Positions 37,810 through 61,680 of a DNA stretch of 64,000 bases are shown one piece after another. The notes beneath the pieces were generated by a model, which was not told the origin of the DNA, ran no database searches, and saw only the letters and a list, made by a program, of their open reading frames with translations. The first letter of the stretch is position 1; the number at the start of each line of letters is the position of its first letter. The DNA is from an uncultured Poribacteria bacterium. GTDB taxonomy: Bacteria; Poribacteria; WGA-4E; WGA-3G. Position numbers and translations under genes: made by a program. Location: positions 106,707-170,706 of the forward strand of contig OY282383.1 of assembly GCA_958295855.1 (NCBI GenBank), in the 5' to 3' direction.

Positions 37810-37819
37810 CCAACAAATT

Positions 37820-38118
37820 GCGTCAAAAACCTCTGACGAGAGCTACAGTGTATTGTCGCACCTAGGGGTAGGCACAAGGCACTACCCCTACGGACTGCGC
37901 CGCAAGGAATAATAAAAATGCGTCAAAAACCTCTGACGAGAGCTACAGTGCATTGTCTACCTAAGGGTAGGCACAAGGCACTACCCCTACGGACTGCACC
38001 GCAAGGAATAACAAAAATGCGTCAAAAACCTCTGACGAGCGCTACAGTGCATTGTCTACCTAAGGGTAGGCACAAGGCACTACCCCTACGGACTGCACCG
38101 CAAGGAATAACAAAAATT
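37820..38118. repeat. Tandem array of 3 composite units of 99-100 bp
   Basis: gcgtcaaaaacctctgacgag starts at 37820, 37920 and 38019. Each unit is a type F module, then gggtaggcacaaggcactacccctacgg, then ccgcaaggaataacaaaaa. Confidence 0.9.
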
Positions 38119-48095: not shown

Positions 48096-50054
48096 ATGAA
48101 AAAAATAGACAAAGCCGAATATGAAAAACGGCTCACTAAAATTACACAGATTTTTGAAGACATGGTTGTTCATGCGGATGAACAAGCAACTTACCGGTGC
48201 CCCTACAAAAATCGCTTTGACCACTGTACAGCGAAGTTCGGCTGTCGAAACCAGCGAAAAATTAATGAGGGAACCGGGCTGCTTTGTGTGGGAGACGATA
48301 AACTGGACTATCGAAGTGCTTGGGAAACGGATGCAACAGACGAAACAGCACAGGCTTTTGAGCTGGAAATAGCTCAAAAACCCTCTTCCATTAAGATGGC
48401 AAACGGCACAATTACATGTGCCGGCAAGGTTCATCCACTCACCCCTGGAAAAACTGTTTTTGACTACGCAGACGAGCTCGCCGTGCAAGTGCCGACATCC
48501 TGCTTCAGGACAGGGCAGTGCCACGAATGCATCGTTGAAATTAAACGTGGGATGGATAGCCTCCAACCTCACACCGAAGCAGAGGCCTTCCTTCGAGAGA
48601 ACTATCGCCTCGCCTGCCAAGCCGTTGTTCTTAATGTGGATGAGGACATAACGTTTGAACCGCTTCGACGCGCACCGAAGATTCTGACTCATACGGGGGC
48701 AAACAAAGCAGAATTGGGAGTGGAAACCCCTTCCGCAGTGGAGCCACGGGTGAGTCATCGCGATGGCGTTGTCTATTACGACAATGAACCCATCGACCGA
48801 TACCGAGGACACCTCTATGGGCTAGCCCTAGACATCGGCACAACCACCGTGGTGGCAAATCTGGTGGATTTAGTGAACGGAGAAACAGTGTCTGTCAGTT
48901 CTTTTGAAAACCCGCAACGCTTCGGTGGCAGCGACATCATGCGTCGAATCAGTTACGACGGTGAATTTCGGGGCGAACTGCACCGCTCGCTTATCGCCAC
49001 ACTCAATGGCGAAATTATGGAGATGTGTGAGCGACACAACTTCGTCCGACAGGAAATCTACGAAATTGTTGTCGCTGGTAACACAACGATGCGAGATATT
49101 TTCTTCAAACAGGATGTCCAAAGCATTGGTGAAAAGCCCTATAAATCCGTCATCGAGCATCAATATCGCGAAGGCACCCGTTCGACGACTTCGCTAACCG
49201 AAAAGACTCGCCGATTGGGCATCCGTGCGAACCCGAAAGCGATGGTTTACAGCTTGCCGTTGATTGCCAGCCATGTTGGGGCAGATGTCGCCGCAGATTT
49301 AGTCTCCATTGACATGCAATCGCAGGATGAAGCAATTATGCTCGTTGATGTGGGAACAAACACGGAGGTAGTTGTCGGGAATTCAAAACGGATGGTCGCG
49401 GCATCGTGTCCGGCGGGGCCCGCGTTTGAAGGCGGGGGCATTGAATACGGAATGCCCGCTTACCCTGGCGCGATTGAGTCGGTAACCTATGTCAATGGTG
49501 ACATTGTGTATGAGACGATTGGCGGGGAAAAACCACAAGGTTTCTGCGGCTCGGGTCTTATCTCGCTACTCGCTGAGCTTCGTCGGCATAACCAGATGAG
49601 TCCGAAAGGCGTTTTTGGAAATAGAAAGCAACAAATAATCTCTATTTTACCTGAACACGGTATTACCCTCTCACGCGAGGATGCAAGCAATCTCGCACAG
49701 GCGAAAGCGGCGAATTACTGTGGGCAATATATTGTCCTACGACACTTCGGCTGTGCCCCCCAAGACATTACAAAACTCTTTTTGGCGGGTGGGTTTGCCA
49801 ACTACGTCAACTCACAAGATGCAATTGACATCGGGTTTCTCGCCCCGGTACCCGAGGAGCGGATTGTCAAAATCGGGAACGCGGCAGTGGATGGCGCAAA
49901 AACGGTGTTGCTTTCAGAAAAAAAACGTTTAGCGATTGAAACGTTTGTCAAAAATATTGAACACATTGAATTGGAAACCACACCCGATTTTTTTGAGGTC
50001 TTCGTGGAGGGGTGCCAATTTAAACCGATGCCTGCAATTGTTCACCACTATTGA
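48096..50054 (+). CDS. RACo/RamA-like ATP-dependent reductive activator of corrinoid proteins (2Fe-2S ferredoxin plus ASKHA/DUF4445)
   Basis: Plant-type ferredoxin segment (SCFRTGQCHECIVEI...RLACQ), then YGLALDIGTTTVVANLV, VVAGNTTM and MLVDVGTNTEVV. There is an extra Cys-rich N-terminal segment. Confidence 0.8.
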   Translation: MKKIDKAEYEKRLTKITQIFEDMVVHADEQATYRCPYKNRFDHCTAKFGCRNQRKINEGTGLLCVGDDKLDYRSAWETDATDETAQAFELEIAQKPSSIKMANGTITCAGKVHPLTPGKTVFDYADELAVQVPTSCFRTGQCHECIVEIKRGMDSLQPHTEAEAFLRENYRLACQAVVLNVDEDITFEPLRRAPKILTHTGANKAELGVETPSAVEPRVSHRDGVVYYDNEPIDRYRGHLYGLALDIGTTTVVANLVDLVNGETVSVSSFENPQRFGGSDIMRRISYDGEFRGELHRSLIATLNGEIMEMCERHNFVRQEIYEIVVAGNTTMRDIFFKQDVQSIGEKPYKSVIEHQYREGTRSTTSLTEKTRRLGIRANPKAMVYSLPLIASHVGADVAADLVSIDMQSQDEAIMLVDVGTNTEVVVGNSKRMVAASCPAGPAFEGGGIEYGMPAYPGAIESVTYVNGDIVYETIGGEKPQGFCGSGLISLLAELRRHNQMSPKGVFGNRKQQIISILPEHGITLSREDASNLAQAKAANYCGQYIVLRHFGCAPQDITKLFLAGGFANYVNSQDAIDIGFLAPVPEERIVKIGNAAVDGAKTVLLSEKKRLAIETFVKNIEHIELETTPDFFEVFVEGCQFKPMPAIVHHY

Positions 50055-50071
50055 AAATAGTGGGAAACTTC
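50040..50071. repeat. 32-bp type D hairpin module that covers the stop codon of the RACo-like gene
   Basis: gttcaccactattgaaaatagtgggaaacttc. It is read as V H H Y stop. Confidence 0.85.
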
Positions 50072-50106
50072 TATAGCAAAGGTCTCAGCAGAGGACGTAC
50101 GCAATA

Positions 50107-51111
50107 GTGAAAACCTTTCGAGAACGCTTAAAATCTGATGAACCCATTGTTTACGACGGCGGGTTCGGCTCGCAATTGTTTGCTCGCGAGATAGAACTCA
50201 CTAACAGCGCGCTCGCCAATGAATTGCATCCCGCCGCTGTCATAAGTATTCATTCAGACTATATCCGCGCGGGCGCGGCGGCAATCGGCACAAATACGTT
50301 TGTGGTATCCCCACTTCATCTGCAAATGGCAGGCCGAGACAAATCGGATGCTCAACGGCTCACACGGCTCGCCGTTCGGCATGCGAAAACCGCTGTCGCC
50401 CAGAGTGAAAAAGAGCTCTACATTGCAGGTTCTGTCGGGCCATCGCCCGGTGCGATTGAAGCGGATAGTGGCGATACGACGTTCGGCATTGCAAATGCAG
50501 ATGTCAGAGAAGCGCATAAACTGGTTATCCACACGCTGGCAGAAGAGGGGGTAGATTTCTTGTGCCTTGAGACAATGTTTTCAGCGAAAGAAGCCGCCAT
50601 CGCCGTTGACATTGCCCGCGAGACACATCTCCCCACCGCGGTCAACATGACTTACAAATGGACAAAGGAGCGGCGTACCGGTAAAGTCATCTATCGAACG
50701 GATTGGGGGCATTCTGCCGCCGACCTGCTCCAGATGCTTGCCAGCGGCGAGTTTTCGCGAGGTGTCTCGCTGTTAGATTGCGTGGATATCATCGGACTGA
50801 ACTGCGGTGCTGAATCAAGGCGAGCGGAACACTCCGGGATGCCGTATGCAATTACTGGCACCCAGCAACTGCACGCTGCTCTCGCTGAAACCGGAATTCA
50901 CGGAAAACGGATGATGGCATACCCGAACGCGGGCATGCCGAAACTTGATGAAAACCATAAAACTGTCTATACCCAAACACCAACGGAGATGGCAAGTTAT
51001 ATCTCTCTACTCATTGAAGCGGGTGCTTACTTAATAGGTGGGTGTTGTGGCACGACACCGGAGCACATTAAAGCCTTCCGTGAGATAGTTGATTCTTTTG
51101 TCCATGCCTAG
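50107..51111 (+). CDS. Homocysteine S-methyltransferase-domain protein (MetH N-terminal module-like)
   Basis: YDGGFGSQL, NTF, LETM, and the zinc-site-like LNCG ... GGCCGTTPEHI. Confidence 0.8.
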   Translation: MKTFRERLKSDEPIVYDGGFGSQLFAREIELTNSALANELHPAAVISIHSDYIRAGAAAIGTNTFVVSPLHLQMAGRDKSDAQRLTRLAVRHAKTAVAQSEKELYIAGSVGPSPGAIEADSGDTTFGIANADVREAHKLVIHTLAEEGVDFLCLETMFSAKEAAIAVDIARETHLPTAVNMTYKWTKERRTGKVIYRTDWGHSAADLLQMLASGEFSRGVSLLDCVDIIGLNCGAESRRAEHSGMPYAITGTQQLHAALAETGIHGKRMMAYPNAGMPKLDENHKTVYTQTPTEMASYISLLIEAGAYLIGGCCGTTPEHIKAFREIVDSFVHA

Positions 51112-51274
51112 TACCTTGACTGCATTATGTAGTCTTAACTCCATTGGAGCTCTCGTCGGAGGGTATTTTTTTGAAGAAAATAAGAGCGTATTGCGACAAA
51201 CATTACAAAACAAATGAACAAGGTACATCTCGTTTTTACAAGCAAAACAGAGGGTGTTTCACTTTAACCTGAAA

Positions 51275-51306
51275 GAAGTTTCCCACTATTTTCAATAGTG
51301 GTGAAC
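51275..51306. repeat. 32-bp type D hairpin module, reverse orientation
   Basis: gaagtttcccactattttcaatagtggtgaac. Confidence 0.85.
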
Positions 51307-51590
51307 ACTCGCATGAATCCATACACTGATTGGATTCACACAGCAAAATCGATGTTACACGTTGTGAAAAGTGTAACGTTTTTACTAAAATGGAAACCAT
51401 CTCATAACTGTTTAAGGAGATAAAGATCAGATAGGGTATCGGTTTCCCCTGCAAAGCAGGGGTAACATACCAATGGCAAGATGGGTGTAACAATGCACTG
51501 TAAATCTCAATCTGCATTTAACCCCTGCAAAACAGGGGGTAATGCCCCTTGGAGGTTTCTAATTTTTCGTAAGGTGTTTCCCTTGACTCT

Positions 51591-52211
51591 ATGCAAACAC
51601 GCGTTAAAATTTGTGGTATTACCAATCTTACTGATGCGGAAACAGCAATTGAGGCAGGAGCAGATGCCCTCGGTTTTATTTTTGTGCCAGAGACACCGCG
51701 TTATGTAGCGCCACCTGATGCAGCAGAAATTATAGTGGCACTCCCACCGTTTATTACAACAGTGGGCGTATTCCGAAATGCAGAACTCGCGGAGGTTGAG
51801 GCGGTTGCTGCCCAATGCAGTATAACAACTATCCAGTTACACGGCACAGAATCGCCACAATTTTGCACGCAATTAACTTTACCAGTCATTAAGGTATTTG
51901 AACTACAAAATGAACGGGACATCTACACCTTAGCTGCTTACAAAGTGAGTGCATGTCTTGTGGATAAACCAAAAACAATCCAAACTGGAACGGTTAATTG
52001 GGAACTTGCACGGAAGGCGCGGTGCCACGCGAATCGGTTAATCCTCGCAGGAGGCTTAACTCCCGACAATGTCACAGAGGCAATTCGGTATGTAAAACCT
52101 TATGCGGTTGATGTAGCCAGTGGCGTAGAAGCGGATAAACGCCAGAAGGATTCCGGAAAAGTCAACGCTTTCATCAAGGCAGTTAGAGGAATTGACGCAA
52201 CGTTGAACTAA
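51591..52211 (+). CDS. trpF: Phosphoribosylanthranilate isomerase
   Basis: VKICGITNLTDAETAIEAGADALGFIFVPETPRYV, QLHG, LAGGLTPDNV and GVDVASGVE-like. 206 aa. Confidence 0.85.
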   Translation: MQTRVKICGITNLTDAETAIEAGADALGFIFVPETPRYVAPPDAAEIIVALPPFITTVGVFRNAELAEVEAVAAQCSITTIQLHGTESPQFCTQLTLPVIKVFELQNERDIYTLAAYKVSACLVDKPKTIQTGTVNWELARKARCHANRLILAGGLTPDNVTEAIRYVKPYAVDVASGVEADKRQKDSGKVNAFIKAVRGIDATLN

Positions 52212-52290: not shown

Positions 52291-52836
52291 ATGGAAACCA
52301 TAACGCTTACCTATAAAAGGCTTCCTGACCGGATTAATCATTTTCAGCAGCAGTTGCTTTATGCAGACGAGGATGTTATTGTCACCTCTCAGCGGATTAA
52401 ACCGTCCTCACCCATTGTTCAAAACGGCGAGACAGTTTTGGACGAAAACTTCACCGCTGTCTGGTTCGTATTTACAGGACTTTGGTATGACATCGGCAAA
52501 ATCTACAATCTTAATAACGAATGGACGGGCTATTATTGCGATATTATGAAGCCGGTGAAGCGGAGCGTAGATGTAGCGGGGGATGGGCAGGCACAAGGCT
52601 CGGTTTCCCCTACTTTTGAAATAACCGATCTGTTCTTGGATCTCTGGATAAATCCAGATGGTAGTTATGAAATTCAGGATGAGGACGAGTTTGAAGCGGC
52701 AATCCGAGACGGTGCAATCGGCTCTGAATTGGCAGAAAAAGCGCAGGACGCGCTAAACACATTAATCGCTGAAGTTGCGGCAGGAAAATTCCCGCCACAA
52801 TTTGTGCGAACTTTTCGTCAATTTGCCGAGGGTTAG
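52291..52836 (+). CDS. DUF402-family protein (FomD/Ntdp-like nucleotide phosphatase fold)
   Basis: WYDIGKIYN...WTGYYCDI ... DLFLDLWINPDGSYEIQDEDEF. In-frame type E module at 52585-52613. Confidence 0.6.
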   Translation: METITLTYKRLPDRINHFQQQLLYADEDVIVTSQRIKPSSPIVQNGETVLDENFTAVWFVFTGLWYDIGKIYNLNNEWTGYYCDIMKPVKRSVDVAGDGQAQGSVSPTFEITDLFLDLWINPDGSYEIQDEDEFEAAIRDGAIGSELAEKAQDALNTLIAEVAAGKFPPQFVRTFRQFAEG

Positions 52837-52854: not shown

Positions 52855-53045
52855 AATAAGATACTACCCCGCTTTGCGGGGTGAGTATCCTCTTCGCCCA
52901 TAAGCGACGTGCATTCAATGCGTGATGGGCAGGCACGAGACCGGCCGCTACAAGGTAGGTTTCGGTTTTGTCTGTTAGACGGGCAGGCACGAGACCGGCC
53001 GCTACAAATTGCATTTTGGGGCAGGCACGAGACCGGCCACTACAA
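52855..53045. repeat. Mosaic intergenic array of hairpin modules
   Basis: Type A (52860-52889), then cgcccataagcgacgtgcattcaatgcgtg, then three copies of gggcaggcacgagaccggcc(g/a)ctacaa. Confidence 0.8.
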
Positions 53046-53071
53046 ACACAACTTGGTATGATATTGGAGCT

Positions 53072-54457
53072 ATGCAGAATCTCTTTTTTCCAATCGGTGG
53101 TGGAAATGAAATCGGCGCAAGTTGCTACTTTATCCAGTTGAATGGGGCCAAGCTCCTCTTGGATTCTGGCATTCGTTTGCATTCTGATTCTACCTATCCG
53201 CGCTTCGATTCGCTTTACGCTGAAAATCTCCTTGATGGCTTGTGGGAGTTGGAGGGAATTCTGCTTTCTCATGGACACTTGGACCATGTCGGCTCATTAC
53301 CCACTGTTGTTGCTGAAGCACCGGAGGTTCCTGTTTATGCGACGCTACCGACACGAGACATTATGGAACTACAGCTGAACCAACCGCTGCGCGCCACTAA
53401 GGGTGCAAACCCCTGCAAAGCAGGGGCAAATACAATCCCTGGCGATGCAGAGTTGGTGGATTTTCGAGAGGTTAAGCAGTTCAACGCAGTTCGGGTTCAG
53501 CGCGCGATAGACAGTGTCGTGCCGCTCAGATGGCATCACCCGATTGCACTACAGACGTGCCAAGTCACTTTCTTTCCTGCAGGGCACATCCTTGGGGCCT
53601 CCATGGTTTACATAGAATCGGAGGTGGGCAATATTCTATTTACCGGCGATTTTACGCCCTTCGACCAACTGACAGTCCCCAAGTATGATATTCCTGATAA
53701 TTTGGCAGTCGATGTATTGATTACTGAGTCAACTTATGGGTACCAGGAAGGTGCTTATACGGGCGATGTTGACGAGGAACGAGAAAACTTCGCTCAGAAA
53801 ATCGACAGATGTTTAGATGAGGGCGGGACGGTGCTGATTCCCGCGTTTGCAATTGGAAGGAGTCAGGAACTCGCCCTAATTTTGCGACATCTCATCCGTA
53901 CTGGCCGTTTGAGGCCTTTTACCATTTACATTGATGGATTGGCGCAGGTTGCCTGCGATATTTACGAAGAGAATGGCGTCCGGGTCTTTGGGCACGAACT
54001 GGAGAAGGCCCCTCGCCACCTTATTGACGCGCTGGATGCTTTTAATGGAGTCATCATTGCTAGCTCCGGGATGTTGCTTGACAATAGTGCTTCCGCGCGA
54101 TATGCAGAAAAACTGCTTCCAGACCCGAGGAACGCTGTATTCTTCAGTGGATACCTCGATGAGGAAAGCCCGGGGCGGCGGCTGGAGGGGTTGGCTATGA
54201 GCAAGGGGCAACGGTTCCGACTCAATGAGAGAAAAGTACCTGTTCATGCCAATGTGGATACCTATCGTCTCTCCGCACATACAGATAGTGAAGGCATTCT
54301 TTCACTGATTGAAAGGGTAGCCCCCAAAAAGGTTATTTTCGTCCACGGCTATCCACAATACAGAACGGGCGTTAACGTCTATAATGAAACATACCGACGA
54401 TTCCAAAGCCGGATAGAAGTCTATCAAGCAAACAACGGCACACCTATCTATTTCTAA
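53072..54457 (+). CDS. MBL-fold / beta-CASP hydrolase (RNA-metabolising metallo-beta-lactamase family)
   Basis: LLLDSG, SHGHLDHVGSLP, FFPAGHILGAS, FTGDF, ESTYG, and a C-terminal SAHTDSEG...FVHG. Start at the ATG at 53072. In-frame type B module at 53402-53433. Confidence 0.75.
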   Translation: MQNLFFPIGGGNEIGASCYFIQLNGAKLLLDSGIRLHSDSTYPRFDSLYAENLLDGLWELEGILLSHGHLDHVGSLPTVVAEAPEVPVYATLPTRDIMELQLNQPLRATKGANPCKAGANTIPGDAELVDFREVKQFNAVRVQRAIDSVVPLRWHHPIALQTCQVTFFPAGHILGASMVYIESEVGNILFTGDFTPFDQLTVPKYDIPDNLAVDVLITESTYGYQEGAYTGDVDEERENFAQKIDRCLDEGGTVLIPAFAIGRSQELALILRHLIRTGRLRPFTIYIDGLAQVACDIYEENGVRVFGHELEKAPRHLIDALDAFNGVIIASSGMLLDNSASARYAEKLLPDPRNAVFFSGYLDEESPGRRLEGLAMSKGQRFRLNERKVPVHANVDTYRLSAHTDSEGILSLIERVAPKKVIFVHGYPQYRTGVNVYNETYRRFQSRIEVYQANNGTPIYF

Positions 54458-54890
54458 TTTTCGTCTTTTCGTCAATTTGCCAGCGTCCGATAAGGCGAGA
54501 TTGGCTGATGAATGCCTTTGCGCTATGGGTATTTTCCCCTGCTTTGCAGGGGCAGATACCACCTGCCGTTTTGTCCAGGTGGTATTAACCCCTGCAAAGC
54601 AGGGGCAACATGCCAGTGTCCAAAACTTATTGCATTTAGTGAAGAAAGATCAGAAACCTCTGACGAGATCTTCAAGCAACTTCAAACTACAGCGAGAAGC
54701 ACCAGTGCTAGGCAAGGCAGAAAGATCAGAACCCTCTGACGAGATTTTTGCGGCTAAAAGGGTATCACCCCGCAAAGCGGGGACATACCCACCTGCGCCC
54801 AAATGCGACGTGCATTCAACGAATTTCAAACTACGGGGGAACTGGTGGTGCTGAACCTTACGAAAAACTGAACTTTATGAAGAGGAGATA
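54458..54890. repeat. Mosaic intergenic array (types G, B, B, F, F, A and C-like)
   Basis: 54565-54647 is identical or nearly identical to 61489-61570. 54649-54718 is the reverse complement of 59924-59994. Confidence 0.8.
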
Positions 54891-54896
54891 TAAGCA

Positions 54897-56096
54897 GTGG
54901 AACTACAAATTAACCAGTTGATAGAGAAATATCAACATAAAGCCAAAAGCCACTCCGAAGGTCGAGGCAAGTATAACCCGGGTCACGACTACGAACTGGT
55001 ACAGGCGGTGTTAGCTGCGCCGGAACACCGGCCAAAGCAACTCGTCGCCCAACTGGAAAAACAGATGGGTGTTAGCAAGGTCCCTTTTCATGTAGCACGC
55101 CAACTTGGACGTAACCAACTTGACCGGCCCGATAAACGCCTCGAATGGGCAGAACTTGTTACCCAAGCCGGCCAGGATTTGTGCCAATTCGCACTGGAAA
55201 GTACAGAACCCGCAGACTATAAGGCACTTTACGAAAAGGTTAAACAGGTAGTTTTTGTTGAAAAAAAGACACGACAGATAGAACCGAAGGCTATTCTGTT
55301 TGTTTTTTGCACAGAACTCCCTGATACCGTGAGTTACAAATCCAGCCTACAGGAAACAGCACGGTTGACGAACTTCGATGAATCAAAAAAGTTGCTGCAC
55401 GACATCGTCGATGTGATTGCGACTGAAAGAGGTTTTTCGTCAGGTTCAGCTCTGGGGGTTTCTGATGTAGGTGGAAGTCCTGTGAACATCTCGTCGGAGG
55501 TTTCTGATGTAGGTGCGGATAATGCGGGAACGCAAGGGCTTATCCACTCCTTAACCTGTGACATCGAACGAACGGATGGGGAACCGGCACAAGGCACTGC
55601 GGCTACAGCAGCGGATGTGCGAATTGCTGATGAGAAGGATGACTTGCGTGCTGCGGCAGAGGTTGCGCGGCTGCAACTAGAAGCACTCCAGGAAGAATTG
55701 GAACAAGTCCGGGAGGAAGCCAAGCAAGAAGCGGCGCTTACGTTCTTCCAAGAGATGAATTCCGCGAAGCACAGCAATTTACTCGACCAATTTCTAAAAG
55801 CGGAACTGTTAGTGAAACAACTGAGGCAACAGGGAACCGACATCCCACAAGAAATTGAACTCATCCCCAGTCTTATCCGAATGTTCACCCGTTTTGTTAA
55901 AATGCAGGGCATCCGTCCTAAAGCGGTTGTGGGCGAACGGAAACAGATAACACTCAACGAATCTGATGAATACGAATACATCGGGTCCGAGTGGGAAGAC
56001 CCGGACGAACACAAAACGGTTGAAGTCCAATCTGCAGGTTGGCTCTATGCTGATACACTCATTTCTAAACCCAAAGTTCAGGAGGTGACATCATGA
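54897..56096 (+). CDS. Hypothetical protein with a C-terminal coiled coil and a GrpE-like domain
   Basis: RBS gaggaga before the GTG at 54897. The C-terminal 150 aa (AEVARLQLEALQEELEQVREEAKQEA ... MFTRFVKMQGIRPKAVVGE ... HKTVEVQSAGWLYADTLISKPKVQEV) follows the GrpE layout of a long helix, a 4-helix bundle and a beta domain. Assigned by eye only. Confidence 0.45.
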   Translation: MELQINQLIEKYQHKAKSHSEGRGKYNPGHDYELVQAVLAAPEHRPKQLVAQLEKQMGVSKVPFHVARQLGRNQLDRPDKRLEWAELVTQAGQDLCQFALESTEPADYKALYEKVKQVVFVEKKTRQIEPKAILFVFCTELPDTVSYKSSLQETARLTNFDESKKLLHDIVDVIATERGFSSGSALGVSDVGGSPVNISSEVSDVGADNAGTQGLIHSLTCDIERTDGEPAQGTAATAADVRIADEKDDLRAAAEVARLQLEALQEELEQVREEAKQEAALTFFQEMNSAKHSNLLDQFLKAELLVKQLRQQGTDIPQEIELIPSLIRMFTRFVKMQGIRPKAVVGERKQITLNESDEYEYIGSEWEDPDEHKTVEVQSAGWLYADTLISKPKVQEVTS

Positions 56097-59000
56097 AATA
56101 TTGGGTGATAGCCCCAATGGAATCTACTACGCCCGAAGAACTATTCCAGACAGCTTGGGAATATGACAAACGCCATGGGACAATCGCTGTGGGATTTCCG
56201 TCAGGGCCAGCACCGGTATCTTCGGAGGTTTCTGATCTTTCAATTGTTACGCATGTGAACTGTGGTAGTTTTGACGATTTTCAGCGTAGTTTTAAGGCTC
56301 TTAAGGAGCAGGGTGAGCTTGAGTGGGGTCCCCGCGCACCGAAAATGATTTGGGAATTCCATCGCGAAATTCAGCCAGGTGACAAAGTTATCGCGCGGCG
56401 TGGGTTAAGCACGATTCTAGGCATCGGTACTGTGACAAAAACCGCCTACTACGATTTTACCAAAGGCAGCGCCCGAATTGGAGTATCCTCTCCAACTACA
56501 GCAACAGCAGAAACCCCTGACGAGAGCTTCACAGCACCTCAAACTGCAGGAGCAGACCCCCGGGCTAGCCCTGACGAAAGACCAATTCCTGATACTCACT
56601 ACCCATACTTCCGTCCGCGGTTTATAGAGGTTGACTGGGAGCACACCGGAGAGTTCTCAGCGAAGTTAGGATGGAGACGCAGCGTTCAGGAAATAACGCG
56701 CGAACAATTTGATTTTTCGTTGGGCTCAGCACCGGAGCTTCAGGCTGTAGTTGCTGCCCACCCGCAACCACAAGGCTCGGTTTCCCCTACGGAACCTTCC
56801 CGCCCGCCCGGTTCCTTGACACCTACAGTGCCGACACCGCGGGAGCAAGGTGGACAGGCACAAGGCTCGGTTTCCCCTACGACAACGCCCACAGAACACG
56901 CAGGCACGAGACCGGCCCCTACAAATGTCCGCTCTACAACGCCAAAGGCGATTCTTCCTACAGCAACAGCAGAAACCCCTGACGACATCTCCACAGGACT
57001 TCAAACTACAGGGGCGGGTACTGGTGCTGGCCCTGACGAAAGACCGAACTATTACATCGGCATCGACCTAGGTACTACCAATTCGGTAATGGGATGGGGT
57101 ACGCTCAACCCACAAACCAACAAATTAGAACCGAAGGTTGTGGAGATTAACATGATGATTGAACGCGGTGGCATGGGCAAAAAGGAGTTGTTACCTTCCT
57201 GTGTCTATTTCAAGGAAGAAAGCCCGCCAATTGTCGGCGAATACGCCAAAACGATGATTGGCAGACAGACGAACCGCGTTGTAAAATCTATTAAGAGCGA
57301 GATGGGCACCCAGAGACGGTTCCACTTCAATAACACGTCCTACGATGCCTCCACGATTTCGTCGCAGATTCTCAAGCACCTCGTTTCCAGCGCGAAAGCC
57401 TTATTTGGCTTTACACCTGATGATGTAGTCATTACCGTGCCTGCCTCCTTTGATTCCGATATGCGGGCAGCCACGATTGAAGCGGCGAAGCTCGCAGGAT
57501 TCCGCACCCAAGAGGACGATGGAAGTCCGCGCAACATTCTGCTTGATGAACCTCGTGCCGCACTCTATGATTTCATCAACAGGCAGAACAAAGGCGAAAT
57601 CCCGGAAACGCTCATTAACTTCCACCAACCGCAGCTTGTCCTCGTTTTTGATTTAGGAGGCGGAACACTAGATGTGTCCTTACACCGCGTCTCTTATCAG
57701 CAAGAACAATATAGGTTGAATATCGAAGACCTGGCAATCTCGCGCTATACACAAATCGGTGGAGATGACTTCGATGCCAAACTCGCAGAGCACTTTTTAG
57801 CGGCTTATGCGAACAGGCTCCCCGATAACCTTGACGACTTCCAGATGAATCTGCTTAAAAGCACATTCCGAGAATACGCAGAACAGGCAAAAATTGATTT
57901 AAGCAGTGAAGTTGAAACTGGCAAATTAATGGGATATTTTGATGCAGAGACGGTGGAAGCCGCGATTATTCAAACACCCTTTGAAAATCAGGTGTTTCAA
58001 TACGATTTGACGCTGTCTGAATATGAGGAGGTCGTCGAACCCTTGCTCGCCAGCCACCTGACGCTACAGTCTGTTAATCAACTTGACAAGCTACCAGCAG
58101 GGGAGGGGGGGAAAGCCTGCGATAATATCATCTATCCCATCCTTGATGTGTTACAAAAGGCACAGCGGAAGCTCGGGAGCATGCCCAACGTGGATGCTGT
58201 TCTGCTGAATGGCGGGATGACAAAACTCCATACGATTCAGCAACGCTTGGAAACTTTGTTCGGATTTCCACCAATCGCCGCGGGCGACCCGGATAAAGCA
58301 GTCGCGCGGGGCGCGGTTGTCTATCACTACGATTTACACCGCGGCATTAAACCCGCTCGCATTCTGAACGATACTATCGGCATTGAAATCGCCGGAGGCA
58401 GAGTTAAACCACTTGTTGAGGCGGGAACTATTCTCCCGTTGTCTCAGCCTAAGCCAATTGACGGCTTACAGGTCAGCGACGGCGCACCTTCACTAAGGCT
58501 GCCCTTCTACCTCGGCAGCCGAAACGATACCAACCCTCCCAATCGCCGCATTCTTGAGCGGAATGTTCGGTTTCAACGCCCCCTTCTTAAAAATGAACCG
58601 ATTTTTTTACAGGTACAGGTGGACGAACGCGGTATTATGAATGTAGAAGGCTGGCCTAAGGCCAACCCGAAGGAAAGATTTACGGTAAGTGTAGACTCCA
58701 CCCAGCCGCCCGCAGCGGAGCGGGAGGGTTCTGTCCAGGGGTATGTTTCCCCGCAAAGCGGGGCAACCTACAAAAGCCAGACCGAATCCCGTGTTGACAC
58801 ACAGAGGGGGGGACTTCGCGCCCAGGTGGCAATTCCCCCTGCAAAGCAGGGGGAACCTCGGCAGGCACGAGACCGGCCCCTACATTCGCAGAAAGTTTCC
58901 GAGTCAACAGCGGAGGGGGGCAGTGGGCAGGCACGAGACCGGCCCCTACATTCGCAAATGGAACCTGGTGCTATCCTAGATGTGCGATATGAATTGGCGG

Positions 59001-59905
59001 AGATGAAGAAAAACTTCTCATATTATCTGAGAACGTATCAGATTAACCGCAAAAAGGCAATTATGGAGCAGGTTACCCGGCAACGCACCAAAATTTCCCG
59101 CGCCCAGAACGCGGAAGAGTTTATTAGCCCCCTCCTCGACAACATTGACTACGTTAATAACTTTGGGAAAGCGAGAATGATGGTGTTATTGGGAGACCTG
59201 GCGAGCAGTTGCTCAGATACAGATCTGCTTTACGATATTTGTGATGCCGCCATTGCGTTGAGCAACCCCGAAGAGATTAAATACAGACACCCCCAGGTTA
59301 TCAAGACTGTCATTAGATACGCTGTCGAAGCGATTGGGAAAACGCGGCTTCCCATTGCGGAATCGCACCTCATTAACCTCCTTACGCAAGAAACCCCGAT
59401 TGCTGTCCGCCCGAGTGCTGTATATTCTATTGGGAAATGTTGTCATAGCCTCAACGCAATCGAGCACCTAAAGCCTCTGATTAAATACGGATTAGCCGCA
59501 GACCGCATCGCTATCAATTGGGCGTTTGGAAAAATGGGGAGTCGTGAACATGAGAGGCCCCTGCCAATCGAACAACTTGAACCTGTCGTCTCCATCCTCA
59601 TGGAGCAGCTGCGAACCGAATCTCACAACGACGTAAAGCGGAACGGCATTTACGCCTTAGGTGAAATTTGCGATCGGCGCGACTGCGCAGCCGATGTTAT
59701 CGCTGTAGAAAGAGGCGCTGCAGTGATTGAACAGCTTGAACTGTTCCTAAATTTCCGGAGGGATGGAAGTCTGTCCGAGTTGGCGAATATGCAGCAACAT
59801 CGGATGCTCCAGCGGTTTGCAGGAGTGTCTATTCAGATGATAAAAGGGACTCAGCTATCTGCTGAGCAGGAAACGAGCCTGCTCACGATTCGATCGGAAA
59901 ACTAA
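56093..59905 (+). CDS. 1270-aa fusion: N-terminal PUA/EVE-like domain, complete Hsp70 (NBD plus SBD-beta) and C-terminal HEAT-like repeats
   Basis: Hsp70 motifs are IGIDLGTTNSV, VVITVPASFDSDMRAATIEAAKLAGF, LLDEPRAA, LVFDLGGGTLDVSL, IGGDDFD, VLLNGGMTKLHTI and DPDKAVARGAV. The beta-sandwich-like region is TIGIEIAGGRVKPLVEAGTILP. The C-terminus has repeated AV..L/IG helical pairs. The N-terminus reads MKYWVIAP..WEYDKRHGTIAVGF...IQPGDKVIARRG...ILGIGTVT...FIEVDW. Confidence 0.75.
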   Translation: MKYWVIAPMESTTPEELFQTAWEYDKRHGTIAVGFPSGPAPVSSEVSDLSIVTHVNCGSFDDFQRSFKALKEQGELEWGPRAPKMIWEFHREIQPGDKVIARRGLSTILGIGTVTKTAYYDFTKGSARIGVSSPTTATAETPDESFTAPQTAGADPRASPDERPIPDTHYPYFRPRFIEVDWEHTGEFSAKLGWRRSVQEITREQFDFSLGSAPELQAVVAAHPQPQGSVSPTEPSRPPGSLTPTVPTPREQGGQAQGSVSPTTTPTEHAGTRPAPTNVRSTTPKAILPTATAETPDDISTGLQTTGAGTGAGPDERPNYYIGIDLGTTNSVMGWGTLNPQTNKLEPKVVEINMMIERGGMGKKELLPSCVYFKEESPPIVGEYAKTMIGRQTNRVVKSIKSEMGTQRRFHFNNTSYDASTISSQILKHLVSSAKALFGFTPDDVVITVPASFDSDMRAATIEAAKLAGFRTQEDDGSPRNILLDEPRAALYDFINRQNKGEIPETLINFHQPQLVLVFDLGGGTLDVSLHRVSYQQEQYRLNIEDLAISRYTQIGGDDFDAKLAEHFLAAYANRLPDNLDDFQMNLLKSTFREYAEQAKIDLSSEVETGKLMGYFDAETVEAAIIQTPFENQVFQYDLTLSEYEEVVEPLLASHLTLQSVNQLDKLPAGEGGKACDNIIYPILDVLQKAQRKLGSMPNVDAVLLNGGMTKLHTIQQRLETLFGFPPIAAGDPDKAVARGAVVYHYDLHRGIKPARILNDTIGIEIAGGRVKPLVEAGTILPLSQPKPIDGLQVSDGAPSLRLPFYLGSRNDTNPPNRRILERNVRFQRPLLKNEPIFLQVQVDERGIMNVEGWPKANPKERFTVSVDSTQPPAAEREGSVQGYVSPQSGATYKSQTESRVDTQRGGLRAQVAIPPAKQGEPRQARDRPLHSQKVSESTAEGGSGQARDRPLHSQMEPGAILDVRYELAEMKKNFSYYLRTYQINRKKAIMEQVTRQRTKISRAQNAEEFISPLLDNIDYVNNFGKARMMVLLGDLASSCSDTDLLYDICDAAIALSNPEEIKYRHPQVIKTVIRYAVEAIGKTRLPIAESHLINLLTQETPIAVRPSAVYSIGKCCHSLNAIEHLKPLIKYGLAADRIAINWAFGKMGSREHERPLPIEQLEPVVSILMEQLRTESHNDVKRNGIYALGEICDRRDCAADVIAVERGAAVIEQLELFLNFRRDGSLSELANMQQHRMLQRFAGVSIQMIKGTQLSAEQETSLLTIRSEN

Positions 59906-60060
59906 TTTTTCGTAAGGTCTTTCGGCCTTGCCTAGCACTGGTGCTTCTCGCTGTAGTTTGAAGTTGCTTGTAGCTCTCGTCGGAGGTTTCTGATTTTTAC
60001 ACACGGCGCAATGAACAAAAGGGGGAGATAGTTGCCTTGCTTTGCAGGGAAACTATTCGT
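59906..60060. repeat. Mosaic intergenic array (types G, F in reverse, and a degenerate B)
   Basis: 59924-59994 is the reverse complement of 54649-54718. Confidence 0.8.
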
Positions 60061-61297: not shown

Positions 61298-61680
61298 GTT
61301 TTTTGTTGTTATGGAGATTTTCTACGTAGGTTTCCGTTTGATCTGACAGATTCAAACTTTTTGCATTTAGTGAAGAAATTTCTACTATCCTTTTTACGGC
61401 TTGGGGACTCTATATAAGCAAATCGGTCTTTCATCAATTCGCCAGCGTCCGATTAGGTGACATTGGGTGGGGTATGTCCTTTACGTAAGCCGTTTTGTCC
61501 AGGTGGTATTAACCCCTGCAAAGCAGGGGCAACATGCCAGTGTCCAAAACTTATTGCATTTGTGAAGAAATTTCTACTATCCTTTTTACGGCTTGGGGAC
61601 TCTATATAAGCAAATGGGTGTATTTTAAATTTTTGCTTGCAACGAGTGGGCAGGCACAAGGCACTGCCCCTACAGAGGAG
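61298..61680. repeat. Mosaic intergenic array with an internal about 70-bp direct repeat
   Basis: ttgcattt(a)gtgaagaaatttctactatcctttttacggcttggggactctatataagcaaat occurs at about 61362-61428 and 61553-61617. Types G, B and E are also present. Confidence 0.8.

Follow-up and report, generated by a model that had tools for sequence, protein, structure and literature searches.

Two overlapping genes in a 64,000-nucleotide stretch of contig OY282383.1 from an uncultured Poribacteria bacterium (hereafter the window) encode protein X, which ends in a predicted divergent GrpE module, and a 1270-residue protein that combines an EVE/YTH-like domain, an Hsp70 ATPase and HEAT-like repeats. We favor, with some reserve, the reading that the two genes are the distal two-thirds of a conserved and widespread RNase–X–Hsp70-HEAT cassette, which would serve as an accessory module of nucleic-acid surveillance or defense. 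The X gene is the plus-strand open reading frame (ORF) at positions 54897–56096, which starts with GTG, encodes 399 residues and is preceded by the Shine-Dalgarno sequence AAGAGGAGA. The Hsp70 gene is the plus-strand ORF at 56093–59905, which starts with ATG. Both ORFs are present as described in an initial annotation of the window, including their overlap in ATGA at 56093–56096. Moreover, a second Shine-Dalgarno sequence, AGGAGG, is located 8 nucleotides upstream of 56093 within the end of the X gene, and thus, together with the ATGA overlap, makes translational coupling from X to the Hsp70 gene plausible. The best homologues carry the annotation Candidatus Poribacteria.

The AlphaFold model of X (predicted local distance difference test (pLDDT) score of 81) begins with a confidently predicted all-helical N-terminal domain (N-domain; residues 1–177), which is followed by a disordered linker (residues 183–234). 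The C-terminal part consists of a long coiled-coil helix (residues 238–287), two further helices (residues 295–311 and 318–336) and a small β-domain of seven short strands (residues 339–396). The modeled topology from residue 238 onward is the GrpE layout. A J-domain was also considered for the N-terminal region of X and was rejected, given that no HPD motif is visible and that no DnaJ Pfam match was obtained.

The sequence relationship of X to GrpE emerged only once the family alignment had been diversified by a search of representative sequences. X itself yields no sequence match in Pfam, NCBIfam or the PDB (phmmer and a profile search of PDB sequences). The first search returned 102 close homologues, and the hhalign comparison of a Poribacteria-only X alignment with Escherichia coli GrpE or with three GrpE proteins was not significant. 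When 1.84 billion representatives were then searched with a profile, 330 X clusters (50% identity) were collected, most of which share only the last ∼160 residues. The diversified X family (number of effective sequences (Neff), 5.7) was matched by hhalign to an alignment of the E. coli, G. kaustophilus and human GrpE proteins with a probability of 86%, an E value of 5e-6 and a score of 40. The match is collinear and pairs X residues 242–397 with GrpE residues 39–193. Control scores were 16 for the reversed template, 11 on average and 21 at most for 60 column shuffles, 16 on average and 24.5 at most for 60 block shuffles, and 13–15 for unrelated alignments. The Pfam GrpE profile also detects relatives of X directly. 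The best match, to the X protein of locus L041, has an E value of 7e-6 and, at 26.2 bits, exceeds the gathering score (25.8); this protein shares 38% identity with the window X over the C-terminal 153 residues (E value of 1e-28). The X proteins of four other loci gave E values of 4e-4 (L034), 9e-4 (L042), 0.014 (L038) and 0.049 (L043), and the matches span ∼140 of the 165 profile positions. In a Foldseek search with full-length X, the top PDB match was a GrpE structure (9a81_A; probability 0.82), but with an E value of 0.14 it is not significant. The shuffle-controlled hhalign match, the Pfam hits of the relatives and the predicted topology support the GrpE-like C-terminal end that was initially proposed for the 399-residue protein. 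X is, on the profile and model evidence, a protein that ends in a divergent GrpE module from residue 238 on, and we infer that it has nucleotide-exchange activity.

The N-terminal domain of X also connects it to the large protein. In the homologues P0106 and P0111 (residues 1–205), the X N-domain is fused to an EVE-Hsp70-HEAT chain from which the GrpE module is absent. These Rosetta stone fusions link X to the Hsp70 protein and suggest that the X N-domain docks on the large protein.

The central part of the large protein (residues ∼320–870; 57050–58700, plus strand) contains an Hsp70 nucleotide-binding domain (NBD), an interdomain linker and the β-sandwich of the substrate-binding domain (SBD-β). 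The Pfam HSP70 profile matches the 1270-residue protein with an E value of 7e-45. In the alignment with Mycobacterium tuberculosis DnaK (4RTF), residues 322–619 correspond to the NBD, and residues 696–862 align to DnaK residues 335–503 of the SBD-β (E value of 1.4e-5). When ten orthologues are aligned with the window protein, none of the catalytic and phosphate-binding positions varies, among them D325, K401, E486, D520, G522–G524, T525 and D527 and the motifs IGIDLGTTNS (containing D325), DLGGGTLD (D520, T525 and D527), GGDDFD and NGGMTK. A hydrophobic interdomain linker, RILNDTIGIE, is conserved among the orthologues ahead of the β-sandwich. The full set of Hsp70 motifs and the β-sandwich segment noted initially are thereby corroborated. 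A helical lid (SBD-α) was not found: the DnaK alignment ends with the β-sandwich, which argues that the large protein lacks the lid, and a repeat-derived linker and the HEAT repeats come next. The protein also scores below the NCBIfam equivalog cut-offs of the housekeeping proteins DnaK (E value of 3e-44; 151 bits against 648) and HscA (123 bits against 709), and no DnaJ Pfam match was found in the cassette or its neighbors. The sub-cut-off DnaK score and the lack of a J-domain gene in the cassette agree with the earlier view that this is not the housekeeping grpE-dnaK-dnaJ operon.

The N-terminal region of the large protein (residues 1–216; 56093–56740, plus strand) is, at the level of the predicted fold, an EVE/YTH-type PUA-like domain. 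The Pfam EVE profile (PF01878) gives only a weak match (E value of 0.0093; 16.4 bits against a cut-off of 23), and precomputed annotation assigns the corresponding domain of the orthologues to PF28530 (DUF8426). An AlphaFold model calculated with 21 N-terminal domains as input has a predicted template modeling (pTM) score of 0.71, with low confidence confined to residues 37–46 and 135–169. In a Foldseek search of the PDB, this model matched PH1033 (1WMM; E value of 5e-5), 2HD9 (3e-4) and 2P5D (8e-4) with a probability of 1.0. The top matches are all EVE/YTH structures, which also include MJECL36, THYN1 with 5-methylcytosine DNA, the EVE-HNH enzyme VcaM4I and YTHDF1–3, and the PUA/EVE/McrB-N-like pattern first recognized in the N-terminal sequence is therefore correctly assigned at the fold level. 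The domain contains many invariant aromatic residues (W4, W22, Y24, W87, F89, Y119, Y120 and W182), which are compatible with a candidate cage for a modified base. As judged from the homologues, one Poribacteria sub-lineage carries the EVE domain as an accessory, given that most Poribacteria orthologues of the large protein comprise ∼945 residues and lack EVE. DUF8426 is also fused to NucS/YhcG-type PD-(D/E)xK nucleases of ∼330 residues (P0223 and P0224). PD-(D/E)xK nucleases are the usual partners of EVE readers in modification-dependent restriction, and the architecture of P0223 and P0224 is typical of such enzymes.

The C-terminal region of the large protein (residues ∼955–1270; 58955–59905, plus strand) is a predicted HEAT/PBS-lyase-type α-solenoid. 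The Pfam HEAT_2 match is below threshold in the window protein (E value of 0.0015; 19 bits against a cut-off of 27.7) and reaches E values of 2e-4 and 3e-5 in the homologues P0002 and P0106, respectively. The HEAT_PBS and Adaptin_N matches to this region are weak, and PF13646 is a precomputed annotation of many homologues. In an alignment of 20 sequences, the PBS-lyase-type motif AxxALGxxG recurs four to five times. The recurrent motif and the sub-threshold profile matches support the HEAT-like helical repeats that had been claimed for this segment.

The third component of the cassette is encoded upstream of X. The gene at 53072–54457 (plus strand) matches the Pfam families Lactamase_B, Beta-Casp and RMMBL, and its product matches the PDB entries of aCPSF1 (1e-41), CPSF73 (4e-37), TTHA0252 (5e-29) and Cas14 (5e-27), as well as IntS11. 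All seven nuclease motifs (DSG, HGHLDH, AGH, GDF, TESTYG, SAHTD and FVHG) are present in the translation. By its sequence, the product is a CPSF73/aCPSF1-type β-CASP RNase. Its start is likely M22 of the listed ORF at 53009–54457; the L003 ortholog (64% identity) begins at the M22 equivalent. A nuclease gene precedes X in 11 loci. The arrangement nuclease–X–Hsp70-HEAT recurs in the Poribacteria loci L001, L002 and L007–L014 and is also found in L003, L031, L034 (Melioribacteraceae), L035 (Anaerolineae), L036 (Intestinibacter), L037 (Thermoflexales), L038 (Synergistaceae), L039 (Haloplasma) and L040–L042, so that the triad is present in Poribacteria and in at least six other lineages. The X and Hsp70 genes are syntenic in every related locus examined and mostly overlap or abut, with frames that overlap (by ATGA or 1–4 nucleotides) or abut in L001, L002, L041 and L042. 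The initial proposal of a two-gene unit thus holds for the linkage of the pair, but the unit actually consists of three genes. Relative to L003, the nuclease is 64%, the Hsp70-HEAT protein 48% and X 39% identical. Some loci additionally encode Hsp70 paralogues of 383–439 residues that contain only the NBD and lie beside the Hsp70-HEAT gene (three in tandem at L004:2943-10324 and one at L003:9741-11060). These paralogues may be partner ATPases or Hsp110-like exchange factors.

Outside the Poribacteria core, the cassette or the pair repeatedly occurs in CRISPR and defense loci. In L034, the triad is located between Csm3/Csm5/Csm4 genes, a CARF-Mrr nuclease and a Cas_NE0113 protein. The neighbors of the L039 triad include Cas1, CARF proteins of the TM1812 family and a CRISPR array with 15 or more repeats. 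L043 is arranged in the order Cas10, four RAMP genes, a CRISPR array, Hsp70-HEAT, X and Cas6, with CBASS-type E2/JAB-ThiF genes and HicAB in the vicinity. In L005 (L005:1-18122), a RAMP-EVE-Hsp70-HEAT fusion of 1373 residues (P0094) is encoded beside a short Cas10-palm protein of 547 residues and a Csx10-like protein. This unusual, type III-like locus also encodes two RRM-RAMP fusions of 800–900 residues, three NBD-only Hsp70 paralogues and a further RAMP, and no CRISPR array was found within its 18 kb. L034, L039, L043 and L005 are therefore placed in or next to type III cas loci. L041 is surrounded by SNF2/DEAD helicases, a 1601-residue MmeI/Eco57I-type methyltransferase and a DEAD/MZB protein. 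L004 harbors a paralogous system of the Poribacteria type, with EVE-Hsp70-HEAT and three NBD-only Hsp70 genes. The presence of the cassette in CRISPR and defense loci of other bacteria indicates that it probably acts in nucleic-acid surveillance rather than in protein folding. The tentative suggestion of a defense or surveillance role in the initial annotation thereby gains support by association, from the four type III loci and the L041 island.

The long Hsp70 ORF contains repeat-derived insertions. The 52–62.5 kb region of the window is crowded with short dispersed repeat families that resemble repetitive extragenic palindromic (REP) elements and miniature inverted-repeat transposable elements (MITEs) and that occur both between and within genes. 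In-frame copies are found in at least four neighboring genes: those of the DUF402 protein (52584–52613), the β-CASP RNase (about 53396–53430), X and Hsp70. The large ORF contains copies at 56196–56241, 56496–56583, 56761–56929, 56958–57045 and 58734–58956. The 88-nucleotide D3 copy at 56496–56583 encodes a loop of the EVE domain (residues ∼135–164), is absent from P0002–P0011 and lies inside the segment of pLDDT below 50 (residues 135–169). In the ortholog alignment, P0001, the closest relative, is the only one to share the 30-residue insert at ∼146–175. The EVE–Hsp70 linker (56741–57049; residues ∼217–319) consists mostly of in-frame repeat copies: D5 at 56761–56790 and 56851–56880, D2 at 56887–56929 and D3 at 56958–57045. 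The last of these (residues ∼291–318) is unique to the window genome. The linker between SBD-β and HEAT (58734–58956; residues ∼881–955) contains in-frame D1 and D2 copies. In X, an insertion at 55431–55515 (repeat pairs I2, I3, I5, D10 and D14) encodes residues ∼179–207 and overlaps the segment of pLDDT below 50 (residues 183–208); the orthologues are ∼16 residues shorter. The repeat stretches of the large protein correspond to gaps or unrelated sequence in the ortholog alignment, and the inserts encode low-complexity loops that are absent from orthologues and disordered in the AlphaFold models. According to these alignments, dispersed repeats inserted in frame account for the low-complexity linkers, which are not conserved domain tethers. 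The idea that the domains of the large protein are tethered through its two ∼100-residue stretches (residues 216–318 and 870–955) is accordingly not sustained. The arrangement resembles Rickettsia palindromic elements.

The repeats bear on how the large gene is called. The public gene call for the window sequence (P0004; 57152–59905; 917 residues) starts at M354, and a protein with this start would have neither the EVE domain nor the phosphate-1 loop IGIDLGTTNS, which is invariant. Because of the loss of this loop, the P0004 start is almost certainly miscalled, and the repeat-rich 5′ third of the gene is the probable cause. In ten ortholog clusters (P0001–P0003 and P0005–P0011; 59–89% identity; 1170–1275 residues), all three domains are encoded in a single ORF, and the linkers differ from those of the window protein and are mostly free of repeats. 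The distant proteins P0082–P0115 also contain EVE-Hsp70-HEAT on a single chain. The existence of single-ORF orthologues with different linkers therefore shows that the three-domain protein is real.

Several observations weigh against the favored reading of a surveillance or defense module. In the Poribacteria (the window and at least 10 genomes), the triad occupies a housekeeping setting in the order homocysteine S-methyltransferase, DUF402, triad and DegT aminotransferase, and no cas or restriction genes were found near the triads of the window and the Poribacteria core. The 64-kb window contains no CRISPR array or cas gene, and PADLOC returned only marginal, uninformative matches. The loci L035, L037, L038, L040 and L042 have no defense neighbors. 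The three triad proteins contain no CARF or SAVED match, and no J-domain partner was found. The GrpE assignment of the window X itself draws on profile, transitive and topological evidence, with a Foldseek match that is not significant and no Pfam GrpE match at an E value of 0.1 or below. The main rival explanation is a housekeeping RNA-processing complex, in which the β-CASP RNase would mature or decay cellular RNA in the manner of RNase J, aCPSF1 or FttA, Hsp70 and GrpE would be its assembly or remodeling chaperone, EVE would read rRNA or tRNA modifications, and no role in conflict would exist. This rival is favored by the conserved chromosomal synteny in which the triad is fixed across Poribacteria; in the comparison with L003, the nuclease is the best conserved of the three proteins; and several loci outside Poribacteria have ordinary neighbors, such as ribosomal protein S20, a SpoU methylase and an rRNA dimethylase. 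Against a housekeeping role stand the patchy distribution outside Poribacteria, the position of the cassette or the pair (three lineages have it inside type III CRISPR loci, and a further one in a restriction/helicase island), the existence of a RAMP fusion and the occurrence of the EVE domain on PD-(D/E)xK nucleases. We regard this rival as unlikely, though as one to be taken seriously.

The intact ATPase motifs, interdomain linker and SBD-β, which are typical of working Hsp70 proteins, and the GrpE-type partner would also suit a specialized protein chaperone, that is, a DnaK paralogue comparable to HscA or HscC that uses its own GrpE for a particular client and for which the nuclease and extra domains are incidental. 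Such a chaperone is improbable, given that HEAT repeats replace the helical lid, that no J-protein is present, that 11 loci keep the nuclease in strict linkage and that the protein is fused to the nucleic-acid modules EVE and RAMP. The possibility that the large protein is an artefact, in which separate EVE, Hsp70 and HEAT genes are bridged by in-frame repeats or assembly errors, was rejected and has hardly any chance of being correct. Both interdomain linkers are made of dispersed repeats that are also found intergenically, and the public call P0004 begins at M354. Nevertheless, the ten ortholog clusters and P0082–P0115 hold all three domains in one chain, the M354 start deletes the phosphate-1 loop, and a Shine-Dalgarno sequence and the ATGA coupling mark the start at 56093.

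If the cassette is a surveillance or defense module, its function, as inferred from domain content and gene neighborhood, could be organized as follows. Hsp70 would operate as an ATP/ADP-driven clamp or switch that is reset by its own GrpE-like partner. The HEAT domain and the X N-domain would scaffold the RNase, and the SBD and, where present, EVE or RAMP would select the target, which may be a modified or foreign nucleic acid or ribonucleoprotein. The nucleotide cycle would then gate or target the action of the CPSF73-type RNase. In Poribacteria, the module would have been turned into a fixed chromosomal locus. A bolder version of this scheme, which we hold only tentatively and as less probable than the general one, is that the triad represents a new class of immune effector, either stand-alone or ancillary to type III systems, in which a GrpE-reset Hsp70 cycle licenses the CPSF73-type RNase and a swappable N-terminal EVE (in Poribacteria) or CRISPR RNA-binding RAMP (in L005) confers specificity. 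On this bolder version, no Hsp70/GrpE machine would earlier have been seen to act as a nucleic-acid-directed defense switch, and the triad would have become fixed in the genomes of sponge-symbiont Poribacteria.

Hsp70 and GrpE form a textbook folding machine. Here, HEAT repeats stand in for the lid, the exchange factor has an extra domain, an RNA nuclease is a fixed partner, and targeting would be provided by EVE or a CRISPR RAMP. If the proposal is true, the nucleotide cycle of Hsp70 has been co-opted as a nucleic-acid surveillance switch. Type III CRISPR biology, now dominated by CARF and SAVED sensors, would gain a novel effector logic, and Pfam DUF8426 and ∼330 uncharacterized GrpE-like protein clusters would acquire a function that can be tested.

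Two predicted conflict systems resemble parts of the cassette. CnuD is a protein with Hsp70 NBD/SBD and HEAT regions that has been predicted in type III CoCoNuT restriction systems (PMC11090510). As points of resemblance, predicted defense operons encode CnuD, its partners include coiled-coil proteins, and RNA is its predicted target. The partners of CnuD are the McrB-like NxD GTPase CnuB, the McrC-like CnuC and HEPN RNases (PMC11090510), whereas those of the window protein are the GrpE-like X and a β-CASP RNase. No CnuB-, CnuC- or HEPN-type genes were found among the called or Pfam-scanned neighbors of the window or of the loci examined. The two proteins are further set apart by the description of CnuD, whose Walker-A-like motifs are degenerate and suggest a poor ATPase (PMC11090510), while all ATPase motifs of the window protein are intact. 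Dedicated HSP70 and GrpE pairs, some of them with paralogues that lack the peptide-binding domain, have been predicted in GAP1-N2 GTPase conflict systems (PMC7159879). A dedicated Hsp70 and GrpE are common to these systems and the cassette, and NBD-only paralogues also occur in L003, L004 and L005. The GAP1-N2 systems, which are found mainly in actinobacteria and firmicutes, include a GTPase and FNIII/DnaJ or TPR proteins (PMC7159879), whereas the cassette contains no GTPase, DnaJ or FNIII protein. Unlike in the GAP1-N2 systems, the cassette Hsp70 bears HEAT and EVE, and its GrpE partner, which has diverged strongly, carries an additional N-domain. Neither CoCoNuT nor the GAP1-N2 systems match the triad.

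The cassette shares the Hsp70 NBD and SBD-β, the GrpE architecture and the gene order of grpE-like followed by hsp70 with the canonical grpE-dnaK-dnaJ system (1DKG and 4ANI). It differs in that DnaJ and the SBD-α lid are missing and that EVE, HEAT and the X N-domain are added. Type VII Cas14 likewise places a CPSF-type β-CASP RNase in a type III-derived CRISPR context (PMC12669027, PMC10910872), and the window nuclease matches it with an E value of 5e-27. However, the window nuclease lacks the Cas10-like C-terminal domain of Cas14, and no Cas5 or Cas7 is encoded in the window. As with type III ancillary effectors, some copies of the cassette lie within cas operons and others elsewhere, but the window proteins of the cassette gave no CARF or SAVED match. 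The EVE domain has the same fold as VcaM4I (6YEX), the McrB readers and THYN1/YTHDF, and the reader is positioned N-terminal to an NTPase or nuclease effector. In contrast to EVE restriction enzymes, the partner of the reader is an Hsp70 ATPase instead of a GTPase or nuclease. The surveys of type III accessory genes that were consulted, like the CRISPR classification of 2025, make no mention of Hsp70 modules (PMC6546367, PMC11229360, PMC12669027), and no description of the triad was found in the open-access papers searched. The initial statement that no characterized system is known to have this architecture thus stands for the triad but not for its elements, given that earlier predictions placed Hsp70-HEAT proteins and dedicated Hsp70/GrpE pairs in conflict systems (PMC11090510, PMC7159879).

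The surroundings of the two genes are also shaped by repeats. The intergenic region between the nuclease and X genes (54465–54870) contains repeat families D1, D3, D4, D6, D8 and D12 and is enlarged by them; the same gap measures 8–190 bp in L001–L003. An 81-nucleotide inverted repeat (pair I1; 54645–54725 and 59918–59998, 94% complementary) exactly brackets the X and Hsp70 genes, which may reflect mere local repeat density or else mobility or recombination. A 73-nucleotide stretch is perfectly repeated 6.9 kb apart, at 54565–54637 and 61489–61561. The locus is a clear case of dispersed repeats that enter genes in frame, and at least one automated gene call has erred because of them. Elsewhere in the window, tandem arrays of a 99-nucleotide unit (3.1 copies; 96% match) and a 51-nucleotide unit (3.8 copies) are located at 37815–38117 and 1331–1532, respectively. 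The 99-nucleotide unit holds motifs of the dispersed repeat families, and these arrays are not CRISPR arrays. The upstream genes at 48096–52211 appear to serve ordinary metabolism, with predicted products that include a homocysteine S-methyltransferase, a PRAI-like TrpF and a corrinoid activation protein of the RACo type; their order is also kept in the Poribacteria loci L001 and L002.

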